Positions 31,990-58,750 of a DNA stretch of 64,000 bases are shown here, in pieces. The stretch lies in the NCBI GenBank assembly GCA_036502905.1, contig DASXXV010000079.1:9507-73506 (forward strand). The letters run 5' to 3'. The notes below the pieces were generated by a model. It saw only the letters and a list, made by a program, of their open reading frames with translations. It had not been told where the DNA came from and ran no database searches. The translations under genes and the position numbers were made by a program. Positions within the stretch are counted from its first letter, which is position 1; every line of letters starts with the position of its first letter. The stretch comes from Terracidiphilus sp. GTDB taxonomy: Bacteria; Acidobacteriota; Terriglobia; Terriglobales; Acidobacteriaceae.

Positions 31990-34900
31990 TCATTGCCCAA
32001 GAATGACAGGCTGGGCGCAGGTCAAACCGGTGAATCCGTCCCCGACGAGCAAATCCGCGCCAGGGCCGGAAAGTTCAAAGGTTGCCATCCGCGACGAACT
32101 GCCTGTTCCGGTTGCGGCACGTCCCTGCAGGGTGAGCGCGTTGTTCAGGATGTAATCCAACCGGTATCCGCCCCCGGTATGGGTGATCTGCGCGCTCCGG
32201 ACCAGTTGGAAGATCGACCATGTGCCCTGCCAGGGCTGGAACCCCTGGCCATCGACGAGAAGCGAGGCGGATTGCGCGTTGGCGCCGTTCCAGGTAAGAG
32301 TCTGGGGAGTAGACCCGGATGGCATTTTCAAGCCGTCCATGACTACCGTGGCGTTGTTGACGCCGTTGCCGGAAATGAAGCGCAAATTGAAGCTAAAAGA
32401 TGCGGATTTTGCGCCGCCCTGGTACAGAGAGGTGCTGAGGTGCGCGGCCCGATTGAAGTACGAAAGGAATTTCTGGTTCACGGGACCAGGCGCAGCGGGG
32501 GCGGCAACGTATTGCGTGCCGGACAGTGCGAGCGTGTCCTTCAGGTCGCCGGCCAAGGCCGTCCAGATTACGCCGGTTCCGGGCGCAAAGACCCTATCGA
32601 CGTCGGACAAGGCAGCCTGCGGCGCATTGACATTGGAAACGAAGGGGAATTTTGAGAGCAGCGGATTGATGTTGTTGCAGATATTCTTACCGGCTCCGTT
32701 GGCGGCCCCCCCTTTTTGGGGCTTGCGGCCATCGACACAGTCGATCGGCTGTTTCAACAGGTTGATCACCAGTTTCTCAACATGGCCGTCCGGATCGACA
32801 TTAAAGCCCTGTTGGACCTGCTGAACGGCGCCGTTTGCCGCTGTGACCTGCACGGAAATCGGTGCGAAATCGACAGGATCCGTGATGACAGGTTTGGTCG
32901 CTGTGGCAAGGTCGATCGCCCCGCCCAGGTTCGACAACGCTGTGATGTAAGTCTTGTTGCCGTCGCCTATAAGGCGATCAGTGGAGTTCGCGTCCACAAA
33001 GGCCTGGGCGGGCTGGAAAACTTTCTTGATCTGCGGGTCATTGACGGCAGTGTTGTGTGAAACCAGGTAAAAGAGTTCCAAAAGTGGCGACGCAGGTTCC
33101 GTCAGTTTCCCGAGGCGCATGGATGCATCTTTCAGGCTGGTGCAGTTCACTACCCGTGCAGAACTAAGATAGGCGCGCCACTCCTTCAGGAAATCGGCGG
33201 AGTACTGCGACCAGAGAGCGCTGCCGCTGACGGCGGAACTCAGTGCCTGCCCGCCTGCATCACCCAGGACCCAGGTTTCCCCGGCGGCGTACTTGTCCGG
33301 ATGCTGAACCGCATTTTGCATAAATGCGAAGCCATCCTTGGAGAAGGCGCCGCGCACAATCTTGGGGTCCACCACGTAGGAAGCGCTTCCGGGGTATTGC
33401 TTGTTGAAGTCGATGGTTTGACCGGCCTTGTCGCCATCCGCCAGCATGGCCTGGTATACGCGCGTCACGCCCAGAAAATTGTGGAGATACGAACGGGTGT
33501 GGTCGCGCGCCACCGAATCCACGGTGATGGAGTAGGGCGGATGGTGCAGCAATTCGTTCCCGTAGAAATCGATCTGCTTCTTGGCCAGGTCCTGCTGTTC
33601 CGGGTTAAGGTCTGTCCGCGATCCGATCCAATACTGAAAAAACGCCGGGGTAAGGAATTTCGGATCGCACTTGTCGGGGTTGCTTGTGGTAACGAGATAC
33701 GCTTTCAGCGGGTTGTAGGCCGCGTTGTAAAGGCTGAAGTCGCTGGCGTTGGCAGGCGCATCAGGCAGGCCGCGCATGCTCGCCAGGAATCCGTTCTGTG
33801 CCGGATTGAGCAGCATGGGCCGGAAGCGATCGAAGTAGACCTTGCGCGCCTCGTCCTCGAGCTTGTCGCCCTGGTAGAGGCCGAACCGGTAACTCAGATG
33901 GGGGCCGTTCTGCCGCCAGTCATCGAGTTGCAGAATGGTCAGGCGCAGATCGTCGAGTGCGCTGAGCTCTTTCGGTCCGGCCATGGAGGTCCCGGTGGCG
34001 TCGGTCACCGGCAGAGCGCGCGCGTCGTCTTGAATGCGGTGCTCGATAGCCGCGTTATTTATGTAGGAAACGATGAGGAAGATGGTGTAGAGCGCAAAGA
34101 GAAACGCCAGGGTCCCGTAGAGAATGCGGCGGAAAAGCCTGGCGGGCGCGCTCTGCCTGGTCGCAGTGAGCGCGCTTCGATCTCCCAGGATCACCTCGGG
34201 CAGCAGGCGGGGCAGGAACGTCCATTGCGGCACGCGCGCCTGGGTCATCACTGGCGCGGGGGCGGCGGCGGGGGCGGCAGCTCTTCCCATGGAGAGGTTG
34301 ATGTACTGGGTGGCGCCGGCATCCTGGGGGGTGTGCCGGGGCTCCGCCGCAGCCGGGGCGCTCACCGCCCGCTCCACGATGCGCGCGCGAATACCGGTGA
34401 AATAGAAGCCGCGCAGGTAGGGATTGGCGCTTAGCTGGGAGGGCTTGCAGAGCTCCACCAGATACTGGTTGAGATTCTTGCGAACCTTGCCGAGCTCGCG
34501 GGGGAACTCGTATACGCCGGAAACATTTCTGGGGTCGTTTTCGCGGTCCAGCATCTCCACCCGGAATTCGCCCAGCTGGTAAACCAGGCCATCGATGATC
34601 CCGGCCAGCAGGCGCGAAGCCTGTTCGGCGTATACGCCCGCGGAGGCATCACTGCGCGGCAACGGCACGCCCAGCACCTGGCGCACTTCGGCGTCGGAAA
34701 GATTGCGCACGTATTCGGCAAAGTGAGGCACGCGATCGAGCTTGGTGACGATCACGTACACCGGCAGAGGCATCCCGAGGATCCGGCTGACCTCGCGTAG
34801 TTGCGCTCCGGTAGCGCGCGCCGAGGCCATGAGCGACTGGCCCGCATCGCCAACGAGGAGCTGGTCCGCGCTCACGCAAACGATGACTGCCCGGGGCGCG

Positions 34901-35460
34901 GCACCGCTGCCGAATGCGGAGCGATAGGCCCGGGCCCGAGTTCGATGGACCAGCCTGCCGAGAAGAGTGTTGTTGGGTCGCACCGAGGCGCCAATCTCGA
35001 GGAGCGCGGCGGCCTTGGTGAACCACAGATTGATTACGTTTGTGGGCACCTGGTCGCCATCGAGCGTCGCCGTTCCGGCCAGCAGTTCGGGATCCAGGCC
35101 GGACTTCAGCACGGTGGTGGTCTTAGCGGAGCCGGAATCGCCAAGAATGTAGAGCAGGGGCAGCGCATCGATCGCTTTGGCTCCCTGTTGAGAGGAGCGC
35201 AGCTTGCGGTTGGCATCGTTGAGCATCAGGTCCAGCTCCGCGGTGGCGGCGGTGCCAGCCTCTTCGCCCTGCTGCCCCTTTTCTTTTTTGGCGCGCAGGT
35301 GCATCACCACGATGGTGATGGCGGCGGCAATGCCGATCAGCAGAACAAGGATGACAAAGACCAGGTACGCCGCACCCTGAAGGTGGAGCAGGGCCGCAAG
35401 GCCGAACGCCAGCAGCGCGGCCACCAGTAGCACGACGACGGCGAGTATGTAGGCAAGCAA
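31990..35460 (-). CDS. tssM: T6SS membrane complex protein TssM/IcmF
   Basis: Two N-terminal TMs, P-loop-like GDSGSAKT, PVYVIVTKLD, LRGFYFTG, third TM, FGLYQG, KFPF, GTWSIFQL; TTG start. Confidence 0.9.
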   Translation of the reverse strand: MLAYILAVVVLLVAALLAFGLAALLHLQGAAYLVFVILVLLIGIAAAITIVVMHLRAKKEKGQQGEEAGTAATAELDLMLNDANRKLRSSQQGAKAIDALPLLYILGDSGSAKTTTVLKSGLDPELLAGTATLDGDQVPTNVINLWFTKAAALLEIGASVRPNNTLLGRLVHRTRARAYRSAFGSGAAPRAVIVCVSADQLLVGDAGQSLMASARATGAQLREVSRILGMPLPVYVIVTKLDRVPHFAEYVRNLSDAEVRQVLGVPLPRSDASAGVYAEQASRLLAGIIDGLVYQLGEFRVEMLDRENDPRNVSGVYEFPRELGKVRKNLNQYLVELCKPSQLSANPYLRGFYFTGIRARIVERAVSAPAAAEPRHTPQDAGATQYINLSMGRAAAPAAAPAPVMTQARVPQWTFLPRLLPEVILGDRSALTATRQSAPARLFRRILYGTLAFLFALYTIFLIVSYINNAAIEHRIQDDARALPVTDATGTSMAGPKELSALDDLRLTILQLDDWRQNGPHLSYRFGLYQGDKLEDEARKVYFDRFRPMLLNPAQNGFLASMRGLPDAPANASDFSLYNAAYNPLKAYLVTTSNPDKCDPKFLTPAFFQYWIGSRTDLNPEQQDLAKKQIDFYGNELLHHPPYSITVDSVARDHTRSYLHNFLGVTRVYQAMLADGDKAGQTIDFNKQYPGSASYVVDPKIVRGAFSKDGFAFMQNAVQHPDKYAAGETWVLGDAGGQALSSAVSGSALWSQYSADFLKEWRAYLSSARVVNCTSLKDASMRLGKLTEPASPLLELFYLVSHNTAVNDPQIKKVFQPAQAFVDANSTDRLIGDGNKTYITALSNLGGAIDLATATKPVITDPVDFAPISVQVTAANGAVQQVQQGFNVDPDGHVEKLVINLLKQPIDCVDGRKPQKGGAANGAGKNICNNINPLLSKFPFVSNVNAPQAALSDVDRVFAPGTGVIWTALAGDLKDTLALSGTQYVAAPAAPGPVNQKFLSYFNRAAHLSTSLYQGGAKSASFSFNLRFISGNGVNNATVVMDGLKMPSGSTPQTLTWNGANAQSASLLVDGQGFQPWQGTWSIFQLVRSAQITHTGGGYRLDYILNNALTLQGRAATGTGSSSRMATFELSGPGADLLVGDGFTGLTCAQPVILGQ

Positions 35461-35631: not shown

Positions 35632-36357
35632 CTAGCTGATGTGCGAAGCTCCCGCGCTCAGGGCGAACCAGAATCCGCCGAAGGCCAGGAGCGTGATCAC
35701 GAACAGGACCACGGCCGCGATACCCAGAGCGCGGCTCCAGGGGTCCACGGTGGCAATCTGTTTTACTTGGGGCGCGGGAGCGTCGGGCAAGAAGCTGGCC
35801 TGCCCGCGGACGCGATCGATCTTTTCCCGTGCCTGGCGAACCAGGGTCTGGATCTCTCCGCCGGGGCGCTGGCCCCACTGTCCCCCGTTGCCCTGGCCCG
35901 ACACATACGTACTGGCCGCCAGAGCGTACTTTCCTTTGAAGCCCAGCAGCATGCACAAGCAGTAGACTTCAAGGCAATCGGCCGTTTCCTGGGAGTCCTG
36001 GCGAGCCAGCAGCGTACGCAGATGCTCGAAGAAGATCTCGCCTGCGAGGTGGTGGCCGAACATCTCGTCCTGCATGGGACGCTGCGCCCAATCGGCGAAT
36101 GCCGGGCTCTGCAGCTTGAGGACACTCTCATCGAGAAGCGAGACCACCGCGAAGAAGGCGAGCTGATTGATTTCGCTCGAATAGCCCAGCCCCTTGGCGT
36201 GTTCCATGGCGGCTTTCAGGGCGGCACGGATGCTGGTGCGGAAGTCCTGCGAGTTGGCGGCGGACTGCTGGTTCAGCACCGACAATCGCACGATAATGGT
36301 GAGCGCGTTTTCATAGCAGGACGCAAGGCTCTGCGTGCGCGTTGGAATTTGTGTCAT
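35632..36357 (-). CDS. tssL: T6SS protein TssL/DotU (no OmpA domain)
   Basis: FAVVSLLDESVL, W..RPMQ..MFG…AGEIFF, LEVYCLCMLLGFKGKY, single C-terminal TM. Confidence 0.92.
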   Translation of the reverse strand: MTQIPTRTQSLASCYENALTIIVRLSVLNQQSAANSQDFRTSIRAALKAAMEHAKGLGYSSEINQLAFFAVVSLLDESVLKLQSPAFADWAQRPMQDEMFGHHLAGEIFFEHLRTLLARQDSQETADCLEVYCLCMLLGFKGKYALAASTYVSGQGNGGQWGQRPGGEIQTLVRQAREKIDRVRGQASFLPDAPAPQVKQIATVDPWSRALGIAAVVLFVITLLAFGGFWFALSAGASHIS

Positions 36358-36800
36358 CGAATGGCTCCGATTGAGCGGAGTAATGAAAAACCCCGGGGAC
36401 GAATCACCCGTCCGCGGGAGCACGTTCTGTCACCTTGTATGGGCCCCAGAGGAAGTCCCCGGATCACAGCGTCATCAGCCCTCAAGCTCAGGCGACAAAA
36501 TAAGGACTGTTGCGTAAACCACTAAGAGCATACCTCAAGAGCGGAAGAAGCGAAGGAGAAGTTATCCCCCAACGTAATCGCAGAAGCTGATTCTGTGAGT
36601 GAAGCGGATGCGGGCGAATCCGGCCGGACCCTTTACGGCGAAGAAGCATAAGTGTAAGCTAGCTTGGCAATATACCCCCAAGCTTCCGGGGTCTCCGCGG
36701 AGAGGTCGTGGTGCGTGGGGTGGAAGCCTCCAGGGGTTCCCTGTGGACAAATCAATCGTCCCTGGGATGACGGCCCACGCGGGGAACAGGACCGCTTTCA

Positions 36801-38207
36801 ATGAGCAATAAAAATTCCAGTTCGGGGCCGGAGCAGCCCGACCCGCTCAGCGCGACAGGCATGTTCCTGCGCGCCTTCGAGCAAGAAGGAAAGAGCGAGG
36901 CAAAGCCGGCGGATGTATTTCCGCCCCAGCCCGGGAAACCTGCATCGCCGCTCGCGGCCGGGCCGGGAGCGGGAATGCCGTCGAGTGCTTCCGCGCCTCC
37001 GGGCGAGTTCACACAGGTCTTCAGCAGCGCGGCCCAGCGTCCCGCGGCCACTCCGCCGGCCCGGGAGGCTCCGCCCCAGCTTGCTACACAGGTGGTAAGG
37101 GGACCGGCGCAACCATCGCCCGAAGGGGCTCCGGGGGAGTTCACCAGGATTTTCGTCCCGGGAACGCCATCGTATACTCCGCCGGCCCGCCCCTCAGAAG
37201 AATCTCCGCGCCCTGGAACGCCCGCAGGGCCCTCCCGCTCCAAGGGATTTTCCTCACCTGGAGTATCCGATTCGGCTTCTGGCGAAGGAGGTTTGACCCA
37301 GTTCTTCAGCAGTCCCCTCCGGCCCCCTGTACCCGCGCCTTCTCCTGCGCCTGCAACCGCACCGGCTTCGTCGGAGGGAAGTTTCACGCAATTCTTCACC
37401 AGTCCATCGCGCCCCGCGGTGCCGGCGCCTTCTCCCGCACCGGCAGCACCGGCGGCTGCGTCGGAGGGAGGGTTCACGCAGTTCTTCAATGACCCTTCGC
37501 GGCCCGCAGTTTCAGCGCCATCCGCTCCGCCGCCGCCGGCGGACAACTCGTGGAAGGACGACGACCCATTTTTCCGGCCCCCGCAGAAAAGCTCCGTGCC
37601 GGAAGGGCCGTCTCCCAGCGTAACGGGCATTCTTTCCTCCTTGTCAGGATCCGGGGCGGGCACGTCCACGCCCAAAGCGCCGGAGCCTGGACCATATCGG
37701 CCCGATCCACTGTCCTCGTACGCTCCACCCAAGGCCGCCGAAGATCCAGGCGGAGTGACGCAATTGATTCATCGACTGGCTCAGCAGCCGCCCGTTGAGG
37801 CTGCGCAACCAGCGGCGCCGGCCCCTCCGCCTCCGAGTCCGGAGATGGGGGAATTCACCCGCATTATGTCCCGGTTTGACGCGAAGCCGGCCGCAGCAGC
37901 TCCCCCACCGCCGCCGGCGCCGCCCGCGCCCGTGGCGCAGCCATGGGCGGCACCACCACCCATACCGCCGGTGCCTCCGGCACCGCACCTTGTGCAGCCA
38001 CCTTTGCCGCTGCCGCATACTCCTGCGCCGGCACCAGCGCCGGTGTTCGTCGCTCCCCCAATTCCTAAGCCCGCGCCTCCGCCCATGCCGGCGCTCGCAC
38101 CGCCCAAAAGCAAGCTCGAGGCCATGGTGCCGATCTTGCTGGTAATCAACACATTTCTGCTGGTGCTTTTGCTGGTGGTGGTGATCTTCCTGATCAAGGC
38201 GAAGTGA
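36801..38207 (+). CDS. Tail-anchored proline-rich protein with nine Thr-centred motifs, T6SS-associated, function unknown
   Basis: Pro/Ala/Ser-rich, repeated GEFTxxF-like motifs, one C-terminal TM (VPILLVINTFLLVLLLVVVIFLI-KAK), no signal peptide; divergent from tssL. Confidence 0.8.
   Translation: MSNKNSSSGPEQPDPLSATGMFLRAFEQEGKSEAKPADVFPPQPGKPASPLAAGPGAGMPSSASAPPGEFTQVFSSAAQRPAATPPAREAPPQLATQVVRGPAQPSPEGAPGEFTRIFVPGTPSYTPPARPSEESPRPGTPAGPSRSKGFSSPGVSDSASGEGGLTQFFSSPLRPPVPAPSPAPATAPASSEGSFTQFFTSPSRPAVPAPSPAPAAPAAASEGGFTQFFNDPSRPAVSAPSAPPPPADNSWKDDDPFFRPPQKSSVPEGPSPSVTGILSSLSGSGAGTSTPKAPEPGPYRPDPLSSYAPPKAAEDPGGVTQLIHRLAQQPPVEAAQPAAPAPPPPSPEMGEFTRIMSRFDAKPAAAAPPPPPAPPAPVAQPWAAPPPIPPVPPAPHLVQPPLPLPHTPAPAPAPVFVAPPIPKPAPPPMPALAPPKSKLEAMVPILLVINTFLLVLLLVVVIFLIKAK
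37284..37520 (+). repeat. 90-bp (30 aa) internal tandem repeat, about 2.6 copies
   Basis: EGGLTQFFSSP, EGSFTQFFTSP and EGGFTQFFNDP units start at 37284, 37374 and 37464. Confidence 0.85.
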
Positions 38208-38645: not shown

Positions 38646-40109
38646 CTACGCTGCCACCATGAACCCGCGCTCGAGCAGCTTGCGGATGATGCCCAGACAC
38701 TCCGTCTGAACTGCCTCGACGGGCGCGTTGGCCTGGGCTGAAAACCCCTGGATGGCCTCCTCCGCGGTGCGGTTTCCATCGCACGTGACCAGGAATTCCG
38801 CCACCAGTGGCTGCACGTTCATATGGAACGGAAACCCGCTGACAAGGCGGAGGGTGAGAGCCTCGGCGCGCCATTCGCCCTGGTGCTGGGCGCACACCTG
38901 TTCCAGGCGCACGTTGGGCGCCATGCGCGGCTTTATCGCCAGCAGCTTCTCGTCGCTGTCGATCTGCTGCATCAGGGTATGGGCGGAAAATGTGGACACG
39001 ATCATGTCGCCGAGCTCGCCCTTGGGGGTGCTGGGCACTTCCTCGATCCGTACCCAGTTCCTGCCCTCGCGGCGGCGCATGACGATCAGTCCGTCGTGGA
39101 TGGCCTCCACGCCGCGGTGGCGATAGTAATCCATATACCCGGCGTAAGTAGCCGCGTCCTGAGATGGATCTTCCGATGTCTCCTTGATGCGCTGCTGGGC
39201 GTATTCCTCGGGGTCCTGCGTGAGCCCCTTCATCACCCATGCATCGCAGCCGGTGTCCTGCAGCCATTCGGCCACGCGTTCCTCCCAGGGCTGACCCTTG
39301 ATCTGCGCCCACTCGCACAGCATCTGCATGTAGCCTCCCTCGTTAAGGTGGTCGTGGGCTTCTTTCACCAGGCGCCGGCACAGGCTGTCGAGTTCCATGG
39401 GGTTTTCGCAAAACAGGTAGTCGCCCTGGGGGGTGATGAAGAACGGCGGATTGGAAAGGATGAGGTCGAAGCGTCGGCCGCTTACTGGCGCAAAGCAATC
39501 CCCGGCGAGCGCTTCGATGTTCTCGATACCATTCAGCCGCGCATTGAAGAGGGCGCAATCGACAGCACGCTGGTTCAGGTCTGTGGCCACGACGGCATCG
39601 CTGAACCGGGAGGCGCCCAGGCTCAGGATTCCGCTTCCCGTTCCCAGGTCGAGCGTAGCGCGGGAGTGCTGCCGCACCGCAAAACGGGCCAGGAATTTGC
39701 TGGTAGGGTTGGGCCAAAGAACCATCTCCACCTGCTTGCGGTCGATGGCCGATGCATGGTCCGATGCCACCAGAAATCCGTCGGTGTGGAGCAGCATGGC
39801 GCGGGGCTGGAGATCGTCCCCGTTTTGCCTCAACAGTCCTGACTGCAGCAGGAGGGAGAGAATGTCTCCGGGAATGAGATCTGTCACCCGCTTGCGGCTC
39901 AGGGGAAGCCCCAGCCAGAACCAGCGCAGCAGAGCGTTGATGGTGAGGGTCGCGGCAGTGCGGTCGAGCAGCCGGGCATGGTTGCGCAGGAAACGCGACG
40001 GCAACTCGGCGGCGCCCAGATGTTTGCGCAAATTGGTTTCGTTATAGCCGGCGTCCTCGAACCACGCGCGAAGGCGGTGGGATTCTTCAGCGGAAAGCAG
40101 GTTGAGCAT
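38646..40109 (-). CDS. Class I SAM-dependent N-methyltransferase (NPPF motif) with C-terminal PqqD-like winged-helix domain
   Basis: LDLGTGSG motif I, VATDLN, FDLILSNPPF motif IV; C-terminus …FLVTCDGNRT…IIRKLLERGFM. Confidence 0.8.
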   Translation of the reverse strand: MLNLLSAEESHRLRAWFEDAGYNETNLRKHLGAAELPSRFLRNHARLLDRTAATLTINALLRWFWLGLPLSRKRVTDLIPGDILSLLLQSGLLRQNGDDLQPRAMLLHTDGFLVASDHASAIDRKQVEMVLWPNPTSKFLARFAVRQHSRATLDLGTGSGILSLGASRFSDAVVATDLNQRAVDCALFNARLNGIENIEALAGDCFAPVSGRRFDLILSNPPFFITPQGDYLFCENPMELDSLCRRLVKEAHDHLNEGGYMQMLCEWAQIKGQPWEERVAEWLQDTGCDAWVMKGLTQDPEEYAQQRIKETSEDPSQDAATYAGYMDYYRHRGVEAIHDGLIVMRRREGRNWVRIEEVPSTPKGELGDMIVSTFSAHTLMQQIDSDEKLLAIKPRMAPNVRLEQVCAQHQGEWRAEALTLRLVSGFPFHMNVQPLVAEFLVTCDGNRTAEEAIQGFSAQANAPVEAVQTECLGIIRKLLERGFMVAA

Positions 40110-54629: not shown

Positions 54630-54782
54630 GATGCTCAGAAAGGCTCCCGTTGCGCGCTCCCAGCTGACTTAGTATTTTAATGAGCATTGAAATCGATCGA
54701 TTCGGGCGGCCGGGGTTCCGGGATTGGGAACGTGGGCGCGCCTGAAAATTTCACTCAATCGGAACCGCGCCGGTTATCGACC

Positions 54783-56153
54783 ATGAAACAATTACAGCCC
54801 GTTCTTTGGAGCAAAGGCACCTTTCTGACGCCCCAGCATATGCAGCTCCAGGACAAGTTCCTGGAAGACAGCATGAACTTCCGCGTGCAATCGCTGAAGT
54901 TCTGCGCGTGGGGTTTCAACGAAGTCGTGCTCGACCAGGAACTGCTGGCGGACGGGCAGCTGGCCGTTTCCCGCGCTTCCGGCATCTTTCCCGATGGACT
55001 GCTGTTTGATATTCCCGGTCCGGACCAGCCGCCGCCCTCCAAGGCCATCGCCGAGTACTTCGATCAGGATGTAAAGAGCCTGGACTTCTACCTGACCGTC
55101 CCCGACTACAAAGACAAGGGCTTGAATGTCGCCGGCCTGGGGCGCACCGCGAGTTCCCGCTACCTGGCGGAGATCGCCAGCGTGCGCGACGACAACACCG
55201 GCCAGGGCGAAAAGCCGATTCAGATTGCGCGCAAGAATCTGCGCATCCTGGCGGAGAACGAGACGCGCGAAGGAAGCTCGGCGCTGCGCATTGCCAATGT
55301 CGCGAAGACCGACACCGGCGGATTCCAGCTGAATCCCCGCTTCGTTCCGCCGCTGCTTGAAGTCCGCGCCAGCGATTACGTCCGCAATCTCGTCAACGGG
55401 ATTCTCGAACTTCTTTCCGCCAAAAGCACGCAGCTCTCGGGAACCCGCCGCGAAAAGAACCAGAGCCTGGCCGACTTCACCACCATGGATATCGCCGATT
55501 TTTGGCTCCTTTACACGGTCAATTCCAGCATCCCGGTGCTGAATCACCTGCTCCAGGGTCAGCGCTGCCATCCCGAAGACCTTTTTTCGACGCTCACCGG
55601 GCTCGGCGCATCGCTCACCACGTTTCACCCCACCATCCGCCCGCGCGACCTCCCGCCTTACGATCATGCGGAACTGGGCGACGTATTTCGCGAGCTCGAT
55701 CAAAAACTGCGCATCCTGATTGACACCAGCATTCCGCGCAATGCGGTTTCGCTGCCCCTCAAGCAGGTGAACAGCACTATTTATGCCGCCGCCCTGGACC
55801 ATGACAAGTACCTGGTGAACACCCGCATGTACCTCGCGATTGCCGCCGACGCCAGCAAGGACACCATCATTCGGCGCGTGCCCCAGCTCGTGAAGGTTTG
55901 CTCCGCGACGCACATTGATCAGTTGGTGAACTCGGCCCTGCCGGGCATGGTGCTCACTCACGTTCCCAGCCCGCCCAGCGCCATTCCCATCAAGATGAAG
56001 TACCAGTACTTCAGCCTGACGCAGAGCGGCGCAGCCTGGGACACGGTGCCGCGCGCGCGCAACTTTGCCGCATACGTGCCGGCCGATATCGCCAATCCGC
56101 AGATGGAGTTGGTGATCCTGCTCCCCCAGGCGCAGACAGGCGAATCGCTATGA
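54783..56153 (+). CDS. tssK: T6SS baseplate subunit TssK, paralogue 1
   Basis: VLWSKGTFLTPQHMQLQD, GIFPDG, FVPPLL, HPEDLF, YDH, NSALPG. Confidence 0.93.
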   Translation: MKQLQPVLWSKGTFLTPQHMQLQDKFLEDSMNFRVQSLKFCAWGFNEVVLDQELLADGQLAVSRASGIFPDGLLFDIPGPDQPPPSKAIAEYFDQDVKSLDFYLTVPDYKDKGLNVAGLGRTASSRYLAEIASVRDDNTGQGEKPIQIARKNLRILAENETREGSSALRIANVAKTDTGGFQLNPRFVPPLLEVRASDYVRNLVNGILELLSAKSTQLSGTRREKNQSLADFTTMDIADFWLLYTVNSSIPVLNHLLQGQRCHPEDLFSTLTGLGASLTTFHPTIRPRDLPPYDHAELGDVFRELDQKLRILIDTSIPRNAVSLPLKQVNSTIYAAALDHDKYLVNTRMYLAIAADASKDTIIRRVPQLVKVCSATHIDQLVNSALPGMVLTHVPSPPSAIPIKMKYQYFSLTQSGAAWDTVPRARNFAAYVPADIANPQMELVILLPQAQTGESL

Positions 56154-57502
56154 GATCGCTCACCAGACCGGTGTGGTGGGAGGGCATGTACCTGGGGCCG
56201 CATCATTTCCAGGCCCAGAACCGCTATTTCGAGGATGCGCTCAACTTCGTCACCGCCAGCCTGTGGCGCGATGCGTGCGGATTTGCCGGACTGCAGTTCG
56301 ATGCCGACGCGCTGCGCAACGGCACCCTGGTATTGACGCATGCGCGCGGGCTCTTCGCGGACGGGCTGGCCTTCGATCTGCCCGATTCCGACCCGCCCCC
56401 CGCGCCTAAAGCGTTCGCGGCGCTGTTCTCTCCGGTGGCCGATCATCTCGACCTGTTTCTCGCGGTTCCCGCGGTGGTGCGCGACGGACAAAACACTACT
56501 CTGAATGGAACCGTCAATGGAACCCGGTATGTCGCCACGGATCAGAATCTCGCCGACCAGAACACCGGGCTCGACGAAAAGGCCATCAAAGTCGGGCGCA
56601 AAAACCTCCAGATCCTCGCCGAGTCCGAGCTGTCGGAGCGCTACGTGCATTTGCCAGTCGTACGGCTCATGCGCGACGGCACGGGCCGATTCGAAGCCGA
56701 TCCCACCTTTGTTCCGCCGTGCATCAACATCAGCGCCATCCCCGCGCTCACCGGCATGCTGCGCCGGTTGCTCGACATCCTCGACGAGAAAAGCACCGTG
56801 TTCACGCAGGAACAGGAACAGCGCAATGGCGTCTTCCAGGCGGGCATGTCGCCCCGCAACGTGGCGCAGTTCTGGTTTCTGCACGCGCTGAATTCGAGCA
56901 TTCCCACCCTGCGGCACTTGCTGCTCTGCCAGCACGCGCATCCGCAGGATCTGTTCCGGGAGATGTCGCGGCTGGCAGGTGCGCTGTGCACCTTCGTGCT
57001 CGACGTGCATCCCCGCTCCCTGCCGCAGTACGACCACTGGAATCTCGGCAAGTGTTTTGCCGAACTCGACGAGCAACTTCGCCGGCTTCTGGAAATTGTG
57101 ATTCCACAGAAGGCCATCAAGATCCCCCTGCGCGCGGTGGAGAGCTTCCTGTACAACGGCGACGTCAAGGACGAGCGCTGCCTCGGCCCGGGACGCTGGA
57201 TTCTCGAGATCCAGTCGCCCATCGGCGAAGCCGACCTGATCGCCAATGTTCCCCGGCTCACCAAGGTGTGCTCGGCGCGCTTCGTGGTAGAGCTGATCAA
57301 GCGCGCGCTGCCCGGCCTGTTGCTGACCCATCTTCCGGTTCCGCCGGTGCAGATCATGGCGCGCGTGGAGAGCCATTACTTTTCGATTCAGCGCACCGGG
57401 CCTTGCTGGGAGCACATTGTGCAGACCCGCCAGGTGGGCGTCTATGTCCCGGCCGAGATTCCGACTCCGCAGCTCGGCCTGATCGTGCTGCTCGACGAGT
57501 AA
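56150..57502 (+). CDS. tssK: T6SS baseplate subunit TssK, paralogue 2
   Basis: VWWEGMYLGPHHFQAQ, GLFADG, FVPPC, HPQDLF, YDH, ALPGL; ATGA overlap with paralogue 1. Confidence 0.93.
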   Translation: MRSLTRPVWWEGMYLGPHHFQAQNRYFEDALNFVTASLWRDACGFAGLQFDADALRNGTLVLTHARGLFADGLAFDLPDSDPPPAPKAFAALFSPVADHLDLFLAVPAVVRDGQNTTLNGTVNGTRYVATDQNLADQNTGLDEKAIKVGRKNLQILAESELSERYVHLPVVRLMRDGTGRFEADPTFVPPCINISAIPALTGMLRRLLDILDEKSTVFTQEQEQRNGVFQAGMSPRNVAQFWFLHALNSSIPTLRHLLLCQHAHPQDLFREMSRLAGALCTFVLDVHPRSLPQYDHWNLGKCFAELDEQLRRLLEIVIPQKAIKIPLRAVESFLYNGDVKDERCLGPGRWILEIQSPIGEADLIANVPRLTKVCSARFVVELIKRALPGLLLTHLPVPPVQIMARVESHYFSIQRTGPCWEHIVQTRQVGVYVPAEIPTPQLGLIVLLDE

Positions 57503-57592: not shown

Positions 57593-58750
57593 ATGGCATT
57601 CCAACCAGGCCAGAGGATCGGCGATTACGATGTCGTGGCAAAGCTGGGCGCCGGCGGTCTGGGCGAGGTGTACGAGGTGCAACACCTCATCTCGCAGCGG
57701 CGCGAAGCCATGAAGATCCTGCTACCCGACCAGGGCTCTCCTGACATGGTCGAACGCTTCCGGCGGGAAGTGCAAACGCTGGCTACGCTCAACCACATCC
57801 ATATCGCCCAGCTGCACACCGCGTTTTACTTCGAAAACCAGCTCGCCATGATCATGGAGCTGGTCCACGGGGAAACCCTGCGCGATCTGCGCCTGCGCAT
57901 GGCCATTTCTCTGTCCCAGGCATTGGAGTATATGGCGCAGACGCTGAACGCCCTGGCCTACGCGCACCGCCTGGGGGTGGTTCACCGCGATATCAAGCCG
58001 TCCAACATCATGATCACCGAGGGCGGATTCGTGAAACTGCTGGACTTCGGTATCGCGCTGACCGGGCACGGCACTGAATTGACACGCGCCGGCTACCTGC
58101 TGGGTTCACTCAATTACATGTCCCCCGAGCAGGTGGGAGGAAGCAAGGCCACGTCGCGTTCGGACCTCTACTCAGTTGGGGTAACGCTGTATGAGCTGCT
58201 CACCGGGTCGCTGCCTATCAAGGGCGCGAACAATTACGAGATCATGATGGGGCACATCAACCAGGTTCCCGTGCCGCCACACCAGCTTGACCCGCAAGTG
58301 CCGATCGCCGTTTCTGAAGCCGTATTGCGCGCCCTGAGCAAGGATCCGGCGCAGCGATTCGGCAGCGCGGAAGAATTCCTTGATGCGCTCCGGCTCACTC
58401 CCGCAACCAGCGAGGAGGGACACACCTACGCTGCGCCGCTGCCGGTTCCGCCGATGGCGAGCGCTCGCATTCCGGCGCCTCCGGTCCCGCTCCCGATTCC
58501 TTCACCGTCGCACACGCAAATGGCCGCGCACCCGGTCCAGACCAAGTCGGGCTCCTCGAGCGGATTCCAGAATCTTTCCCTTGAGGAGATCAGTCGCAAG
58601 TTGGCCGTCTATATCGGGCCGGTGGCCAAGTTCGTGGTGAAGAAACTGGCCGCGCAGTCAGAGGATCTCGACTTCATTTACCGCGAAGCCGCGAAGCAGA
58701 TTCCGTCGGACTCGGACCGGGCCGCCTTCCTGAAGGCGCGGCGCCAATAG
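57593..58750 (+). CDS. Hanks-type Ser/Thr protein kinase, soluble, with Pro-rich linker and small C-terminal helical domain
   Basis: GAGGLGEVY, AMK, HRDIKPSN, DFG, YMSPEQ, SDLYSVG; no TM segment. Confidence 0.92.
   Translation: MAFQPGQRIGDYDVVAKLGAGGLGEVYEVQHLISQRREAMKILLPDQGSPDMVERFRREVQTLATLNHIHIAQLHTAFYFENQLAMIMELVHGETLRDLRLRMAISLSQALEYMAQTLNALAYAHRLGVVHRDIKPSNIMITEGGFVKLLDFGIALTGHGTELTRAGYLLGSLNYMSPEQVGGSKATSRSDLYSVGVTLYELLTGSLPIKGANNYEIMMGHINQVPVPPHQLDPQVPIAVSEAVLRALSKDPAQRFGSAEEFLDALRLTPATSEEGHTYAAPLPVPPMASARIPAPPVPLPIPSPSHTQMAAHPVQTKSGSSSGFQNLSLEEISRKLAVYIGPVAKFVVKKLAAQSEDLDFIYREAAKQIPSDSDRAAFLKARRQ

Follow-up and report, generated by a model that had tools for sequence, protein, structure and literature searches.

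A proline-rich threonine-motif array protein, predicted to be tail-anchored, linked to a two-TssK type VI secretion system of Acidobacteria

Why should a type VI secretion system (T6SS) locus encode a proline-rich protein that repeats one short threonine (Thr) motif nine times? We address this question for a stretch of 64,000 nucleotides from Terracidiphilus sp. (contig DASXXV010000079.1, positions 9,507 to 73,506, forward strand; hereafter the window), in which the motif-array gene P0001 encodes a protein of 468 residues, referred to below as the tether. A first-pass annotation, made from the sequence alone, had read it as a membrane tether whose Thr motifs are phosphorylated and then docked by FHA domains, or which binds T6SS parts such as TssK directly. 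We found that the tether family is unnamed and confined to one two-TssK T6SS clade of Acidobacteria, and that its motif recurs in a loop of TssM. The reading that we favour, tentatively and at slightly less than an even chance, is that of a multivalent mimic of the TssM loop that binds TssM's partner, likely a TssK head, and is gated by Thr phosphorylation.

The translation contains all nine Thr motifs as they had been written (Thr19, 71, 115, 166, 196, 226, 275, 320, and 353), together with a tenth, QLATQVV (Thr96), that most relatives are without. Proline makes up 25% of the protein, and the pattern h-T-x-h-h (h, hydrophobic) occurs 10 times, compared with 0.13 on average and 3 at most in 10,000 shuffles. 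Neither Pfam nor NCBIfam matched the tether, in agreement with the earlier statement that it resembles no recognised Tss or Tag component. Three of the motifs had been ascribed to a 90-bp tandem duplication, which TRF recovered; Thr166, Thr196, and Thr226 are spaced exactly 30 residues apart because of this repeat unit. The triplication is lineage-specific, most close relatives having a single copy there and 7 motifs in total. The top-scoring hydrophobic segment is C-terminal (residues 443-465), where a single transmembrane helix had been noted, the N-terminus is polar as judged by inspection alone, and a membrane tether that faces the cytoplasm appears supported. The statement that the hydrophobic patches are mostly motifs can be refined: within the first 440 residues, the motifs and the four residues following each contain 35 of 72 large hydrophobic residues and 16 of 21 phenylalanines (Phe).

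A word-indexed search returned 214 homologues of the tether, and a profile search 845 representatives at E ≤ 0.001 and 392 at 1e-10. The named relatives that carry it are Acidobacteriaceae, and cultured carriers exist, e.g. Acidicapsa dinghuensis 4GSKX (locus L027). The Pfam map of the window confirmed that the gene is divergent from tssL and tssM, which lie on the - strand, with tssB, tssC, hcp, tagJ, tssA, tssE, tssF, tssG, clpV, vgrG, two tssK genes, and one kinase gene on the + strand. The proposed co-location with the T6SS extended to other genomes: in 47 out of 49 related loci the upstream genes on the opposite strand were tssL and tssM, and the remaining 2 are cut contigs. An evenly drawn set of 301 genomes from the order comprised 49 TssM-positive and 252 TssM-negative genomes (one genome in these order-level tallies, G259, is unpublished, and no claim depends on G259 alone). 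A Pro-rich motif protein with a C-terminal helix was present in 47 of the 49, and the two misses, G120 and G046, end at contig breaks. The broad model was built from these 47 locus proteins, so that its 47 matches are by construction; among the 252 TssM-negative genomes it had no strong match (best E = 2e-5, with 10 weak matches to the Pro-rich or helix end only). Linkage to the T6SS and absence without it are thus as consistent as would be expected of an accessory protein. One match in a genome without TssM (G302, E 9e-4) was rejected as low-complexity noise, with no motif open reading frame (ORF) at the site and no match to the broad model.

At the level of the phylum, TssM was detected in 33 of 401 sampled genomes. 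We read 21 loci of 19 of the 30 TssM genomes outside the order and found a motif protein in two (the first locus of G575, and G583); the other 19 loci were without one within the up to 40 kb read around each locus, whole genomes not being searched. In a TssM tree built by a quick method, a branch with SH-aLRT 99 has every motif-bearing system on the same side, and no system other than the motif-bearing ones was seen to have two TssK paralogues. Since the carrier genomes are kin, these counts show tight linkage, not independent events. The commonest gene order is tssK1, a convergent motif gene, and then a tssK2-tssL-tssM unit that diverges from it; in the clade of the window's tether, tssK2 has shifted to a place behind tssK1. 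A stand-alone, tail-less tssK2-tssL-tssM module was ruled out, TssC being encoded elsewhere in 5 of 5 split-locus genomes. TssJ was not found in 5 genomes, where the positive control matched.

Two variants of the family were observed in passing. In P0095 and P0117 a TIR_2 domain and a further domain of no known family are fused to the C-terminal half of the tether family, membrane helix included, as if a T6SS tether had been captured by an NADase-type or signalling domain. In genomes G299 (contig C91) and G331 the tssL-tssM unit occurs twice (loci L075, L105, L084, and L101), and a separate motif protein accompanies each copy (3 and 9-10 motifs).

The Thr is close to absolute, as had been claimed. 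Sites were scored with a pattern in which Thr was not required at the central position X (G/S/A-x-F/Y-X-[RQKE]-h-h). In 50 locus proteins X was Thr in 211 of 215 sites and Ser in 2, and in the protein-search set it was Thr in 854 of 864 sites and Ser in 5; over the motif-array proteins as a whole Ser (10%) is commoner than Thr (5-6%). The profile of 392 array copies is G-[SEG]-F-T-[QR]-[LMIV]-F, and copy number ranges from 2 to about 19 per protein. Most widespread across the family is the last motif in the form GP[SG]E[FY]TRII, about 80-165 residues before the C-terminus. Alignment of the close homologues also showed two weaker conserved blocks, W-x-x-x-P-x-F and YRPEP.

The same motif was observed in a cytoplasmic loop of TssM. 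All 51 sequences have A324 and T325 there, +1 is R/Q/G, +2 is I/M/V, and +3 is Phe in 46, with 50 of the 51 fitting the full pattern. The loop motif was seen in 44 of 49 close loci (two are without tssM and three were not resolved by patterns), and in none of 18 TssMs of motif-less acidobacterial systems, so the TssM motif, the array, and the second TssK are distributed jointly. In an AlphaFold2 model of the TssM cytoplasmic domain (mean pLDDT 84), residues 315-338, between two strands, score below 50, and the motif is therefore predicted, from folding only, to be an exposed linear motif in a disordered loop. The array and loop profiles agree at -3/-2 (small or Gly), 0, +1, +2, and +3, and A-T forms such as SATGMF occur in the array too. 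Because the TssM loop carries this matching exposed Thr motif, the array looks like a multiplied copy of the TssM site. Among 12 locus gene families the motif recurred in TssM only, along with a weak YTELL-type pattern in TssG. Docking of the loop onto TssM itself is unsupported, the loop being of low confidence in the monomer model.

In the mechanism that we propose, the tether would hang from the inner membrane by its predicted C-terminal helix, and the array would bind the same partner as the TssM loop, most likely the head of a TssK paralogue. The TssK head is reported to bind TssL and TssM at their cytoplasmic domains, with two TssK trimers per wedge (PMC6300606; PMC6730261). TssK2 would be the probable common partner: many invariant residues of its head are found neither in TssK1 nor in 16 single TssKs, and TssK2 is usually co-encoded with tssL-tssM. 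Many weak sites would confer avidity, by which baseplates could be gathered or held at the membrane, and Thr phosphorylation would probably switch partner binding. Direct binding to TssK, which the first-pass annotation had named as its alternative, is a better lead than FHA docking because TssM carries the same motif.

Two physical explanations need no such partner. The tether could be a membrane-bound condensate scaffold, with Phe-rich stickers separated by Pro/Ala/Ser spacer and replacing Fha/PpkA condensates without any single specific partner. The sticker-and-spacer layout and the concentration of Phe in or just after the motifs are as such a scaffold would have them, and condensates are reported to recruit TssL and Fha through PpkA in Acidovorax (PMC12607579) and to drive assembly through Fha in Vibrio (PMC13389060). 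Generic stickers, however, would have no need of a fixed Thr or of one exact motif copy in TssM, and we regard this explanation as highly unlikely by itself; as a second layer it is compatible with a mimic of the TssM loop. Alternatively, the motifs could be amphipathic helices of a phosphorylation-independent spacer, lying on the membrane or on each other with the Thr used for capping or packing. For most motifs taken together with the residues after them, the hydrophobic moment is about 0.45-0.65, a value for which no background was computed. Yet Ser, the usual capping residue, is almost absent, and a spacer leaves the TssM copy as well as the phosphatase linkage and kinase relic described below unexplained, making it the most improbable of the explanations considered.

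A link to Thr phosphorylation had also been proposed, and genes of that kind adjoin the motif-bearing systems. Of 48 genomes, 37 have a PP2C phosphatase gene immediately after tssM, and 40 have one within the fetched T6SS region; among 49 close loci, PP2C is present in 44. A kinase gene falls within that region in 37 of the 48; G142, G218 (at a contig end), and G306 have neither gene there. A PpkA/PppA/Fha pathway of Thr phosphorylation is known in T6SSs (PMC13584744; PMC6082577). With PP2C and kinase genes at the loci, and no TagH over the cut-off in any of 5 genomes tested, the pathway in this clade is largely present, the reader excepted.

Several observations concern these genes in the source genome and elsewhere. 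Its PP2C-kinase cassette lies on another contig, C71, in DNA about 78% identical to the stretch after tssM in relatives; locus L211 (G000:C71:3447-10503) holds the PP2C gene, a short conserved gene, an 895-residue kinase, and a 923-residue ORF, the genes that follow tssM in relatives. This cassette adjoins two tRNA-synthetase-like genes, and an ABC transporter now follows tssM in the window. The 385-residue kinase at the end of the window's locus has no evident membrane helix; its C-terminal domain of about 60 residues (…YIGPVAKFVV…) is common to T6SS-locus kinases of G190 and G192, of which the G190 gene is apparently split over two frames.

FHA docking was proposed in the first-pass annotation. 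Extended to the present data, the locus kinase would phosphorylate both array and TssM loop, to which FHA proteins would then bind; in some lineages these would be FHA-chaperone fusions that load effectors. The preference for Thr over Ser, 211 to 2, fits a reader of phosphothreonine (pThr) only, and the motif has the central Thr and defined +3 (F/L/I/M/V) of an FHA ligand, although +3 belonged to the search pattern. In Agrobacterium, Fha is reported to bind pThr14 of TssL, but the T6SS FHA ligand described there, pT-V-V-E, has an acidic +3, unlike the array motif (PMC3953482). Some FHA gene exists in 43 of the 49 TssM genomes; FHA genes are, however, just as common without a T6SS (238 of 301 genomes), and they occur in the fetched T6SS regions of only 9 of 48. 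The latter comprise fusions of FHA with a Tla1-like chaperone domain in seven genomes, mostly just after vgrG, and, close to tssM, FHA-SLT proteins in G225 and G314 and a comparable FHA protein in G299. The chaperone domain is of the DUF4123 type, and the fusions keep the usual FHA residues (GR, SxxH, SxNGT). Such fusions suggest phospho-dependent effector loading.

A cognate FHA protein does not always accompany the array. PF00498 had no match in 6 of 48 genomes, which retain 5-12 motifs, and PF16697 was also blank in 4 of 5 of these that were re-tested, including G096 and G139 (single-contig, 99%-complete). In the source genome (89% complete) the only FHA match is an unlinked FHA-GAF-SpoIIE protein (L060:8922-10655, G000:C103) with E 8e-11, versus about 1e-20 for the best FHA matches of most relatives; it has Cys at the usual His position and may not be a pThr binder. 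These counts, with the lack of TagH, weaken FHA docking as a general mechanism. Certain lineages may use it, but it cannot be what the array does in general, and we consider it unlikely as an account of the family.

The same motif data that suggest a mimic of the TssM loop would suit a negative regulator. The array would then act as a decoy, sequestering either TssM's partner or the kinase and phosphatase until saturated by a signal, and would set a threshold in a role like that of TagF, which is reported to repress membrane-complex assembly in Serratia (PMC6082577). A copy number between 2 and about 19 is what a tunable sink might show. The TagF_N domain was not matched in the tether or in 5 genomes, but for the genomes the controls gave no match either. 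Retention of the tether in 47 of 49 genomes, versus 40 of 48 for PP2C and 37 of 48 for the locus kinase, would suit a needed part over an optional brake, and we judge the decoy quite unlikely.

Relatives of the tether provide a second connection with kinases. The tether of 15 genomes within the order, and of G575 and G583 outside it, has an N-terminal domain of about 100 residues, the profile of which matched 309 proteins, with no Pfam domain among the 120 matches listed. The folding model of this domain (pLDDT 91.6) has the order strand-strand-strand-helix-strand-strand-helix. All Foldseek matches listed were protein kinases (best E 4e-3, none below 0.001). So were all but one or two of the best 50 matches by VIA (Z 7.3-5.9), which comprised protein kinases, kinase-bearing chains, and one axonemal map chain without a named protein; PknB was matched with Z 6.7 and a root-mean-square deviation (rmsd) of 4.0 over 84 aligned residues. 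Pairwise BLAST and Pfam did not detect the relic, and a sequence search of the PDB returned sub-threshold CK2 only (E about 0.7). From folding only, then, the N-terminus of the relatives points to a degraded relic of a PpkA-like kinase. It ends where a C-lobe would start and, lacking a C-lobe, is presumably not catalytic; no Pkinase match was obtained in the window's tether or in 45 distant members without TIR. Two lineages that branch off at the clade's base, where the TssM tree is not settled, have forms with the N-lobe, and an ancestral N-lobe with later loss is likely. On this origin, a PpkA-like kinase composed of N-lobe, Pro-rich Thr-bearing linker, and membrane helix would have lost its catalytic lobe, and the window's lineage would later have lost the N-lobe too.

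A number of points weigh against a phosphorylation-gated mimic of the TssM loop and its descent from a kinase. Position -1 differs, being Ala in TssM and mostly Phe in the array. The common motif could be a mere recognition sequence of kinase or phosphatase, without a common structural partner, and motif, array, and TssK2 may occur together because of one ancestral event instead of repeated co-evolution, as the genomes are kin in one clade. G142 and G306 retain 9 and 11 motifs although their fetched regions lack both PP2C and kinase, and in the source genome the cassette has moved away from the locus. The fold scores of the N-lobe are modest (best VIA match at Z 7.3, rmsd 3.6, 88 aligned, besides the Foldseek value), the window's own tether has no such domain, and the ancestral placement of the N-lobe would be a matter of parsimony.

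A bolder extension of the mimic, which is speculative and in our view unlikely to hold in full, is a Thr switch free of Fha in the whole T6SS subtype. A decayed kinase gene would have become a TssM-loop array, TssK would have duplicated, the TssK2 head would read the Thr or its phosphorylated form, array length would tune the firing threshold, and the surviving N-lobe would recruit an active kinase by N-lobe pairing. If TssK2 reads the motif directly, it would be a non-FHA bacterial pThr reader built into the baseplate.

Comparison with known systems places the tether on the scaffolding side of PpkA and Fha, yet in neither family. Like PpkA/TagE it is T6SS-linked and encoded near tssM and PP2C; its relatives have an N-terminal kinase fold followed by a linker and a single membrane helix, and Acidovorax PpkA is itself described as a scaffold that recruits T6SS parts (PMC12607579). 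Unlike PpkA/TagE, the relatives keep only an N-lobe-sized relic and the window's tether none, there is no C-lobe, no periplasmic domain (only a few residues follow the helix in 49 of 49 family members listed), and the linker has expanded to between 2 and about 19 Thr motifs. Fha/TagH (Fha1, ImpI) is likewise a cytoplasmic scaffold of T6SS assembly in a Thr-phosphorylation pathway (PMC13584744; PMC3953482), but the tether and five homologues have no FHA domain in Pfam or NCBIfam, and the tether is membrane-anchored with many Thr sites in place of one. TssL pThr14 of Agrobacterium resembles the array in being a linear motif built around Thr, on the side of the membrane complex that faces the cytoplasm. 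It is, however, a single TssL site read by Fha; here the site belongs to TssM and recurs many times on another protein. TsmK (AsaB) of Acinetobacter is another lineage-specific accessory factor linking membrane complex and baseplate (PMC13584744), for which the description includes no repeated Thr motif or kinase relic. EssB/YukC of type VIIb secretion and MviN also reuse a degraded kinase fold non-catalytically on a membrane protein, MviN reportedly dimerising via its N-lobe (PMC12599244); those are pseudokinase domains, whereas the tether family keeps an N-lobe or nothing and its conserved content is the array.

Searches of the open-access literature listed no paper on the tether family or on two-TssK acidobacterial T6SSs, and the accessory-factor table of a 2026 review has no matching entry and makes no mention of Acidobacteria. 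New here are an unnamed accessory family that marks a T6SS subtype, the motif match with the TssM loop, the putative kinase N-lobe relic, and the PP2C gene after tssM. The subtype, in abundant soil Acidobacteria, is defined by two TssKs, with no TssJ or TagH in the genomes tested (5 each). To our knowledge, baseplate docking on TssM and its gating by Thr phosphorylation are known only in outline, and only through Fha; a short invariant TssM motif with a natural multivalent copy makes the docking contact directly testable with peptides. The family may further illustrate a route from signalling kinase to structural scaffold. Coordinates are collected in Table 1.

Table 1. Positions of the tether gene, its motifs, and other features named in the text (window coordinates unless a locus is given)
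Feature	Position	Strand	Remark
Motif-array tether gene (P0001), 468 residues	36801..38207	+	ORF translation; no Pfam or NCBIfam family
Motif 1, LSATGMF (Thr19), A-T type, form nearest the TssM loop motif	36846..36866	+	A18, T19, F22 invariant in 48 homologues
Motif 2, GEFTQVF (Thr71)	37002..37022	+	Thr invariant in 48 aligned close homologues
Motif 3, GEFTRIF (Thr115)	37134..37154	+	Thr invariant in 48 aligned close homologues
Conserved block KGFSSPGVSDSAS (pattern KGFSxPGxSDSAS)	37242..37280	+	Confined to close clade; homologue alignment
90-bp tandem repeat giving GGLTQFF, GSFTQFF, GGFTQFF (Thr166, 196, 226)	37287..37488	+	TRF, 2.2 copies, 77% matches
Motif PSVTGIL (Thr275)	37614..37634	+	Thr at least 90% conserved
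Motif GGVTQLI (Thr320)	37749..37769	+	Thr invariant in 48 aligned close homologues
Last motif, GEFTRIM (Thr353)	37848..37868	+	Thr invariant in 48 aligned close homologues
Predicted tail anchor: C-terminal transmembrane helix, then 3-residue basic tail	38127..38195	+	
TssM cytoplasmic-loop motif DAGATQYI	34300..34323	-	Family consensus DAGAT[RQ][IMV]F; predicted-disordered loop
tssM (IcmF-related)	31990..35460	-	Pfam
tssL (DotU)	35632..36423	-	Pfam
tssK1 (probable start 54783)	54687..56153	+	In many relatives abuts 3' end of motif gene
tssK2, candidate motif reader	56150..57502	+	In most relatives heads tssK2-tssL-tssM unit divergent from motif gene
385-residue Ser/Thr kinase at locus end, candidate writer	57593..58750	+	
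ORF of about 93-108 residues	38262..38588	-	No Pfam or NCBIfam match
HemK-like methyltransferase	38646..40109	-	DUF7059/DUF7782
FHA-chaperone fusions	L149:10502-11482, L141:8307-9302, L153:8518-9615, L107:14555-15661, L114:8300-9160, L111:7820-8683, L112:10398-11258		

A promoter scan gave no sigma-70-like site, and terminators were at chance level. No other protein of the source genome with at least two strict motif copies was found among the 8,043 of 25,374 ORFs kept by a composition filter; similar low-complexity proteins could be missed, because the filter dropped even the tether itself. In 43 of 49 close loci the short ORF and the HemK-like methyltransferase gene separate the motif gene from tssB, and the methyltransferase recurs in the distant T6SS loci of G218, G294, G299, G331, and G583; the pair is possibly a T6SS-linked module of protein methylation. 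Upstream of a normal tssB-tssC pair, G196 encodes a 515-residue VipA-VipB (TssB-TssC) fusion-like gene (L142:3363-4907), and partial extra sheath copies are also present in G294 and G307. Motif-less single-TssK systems of another class (L192, L194, L196, L205, and L207; family f32) have 2-3 tandem genes encoding FHA, linker, and membrane helix upstream of tssK, a different accessory set at the same position.

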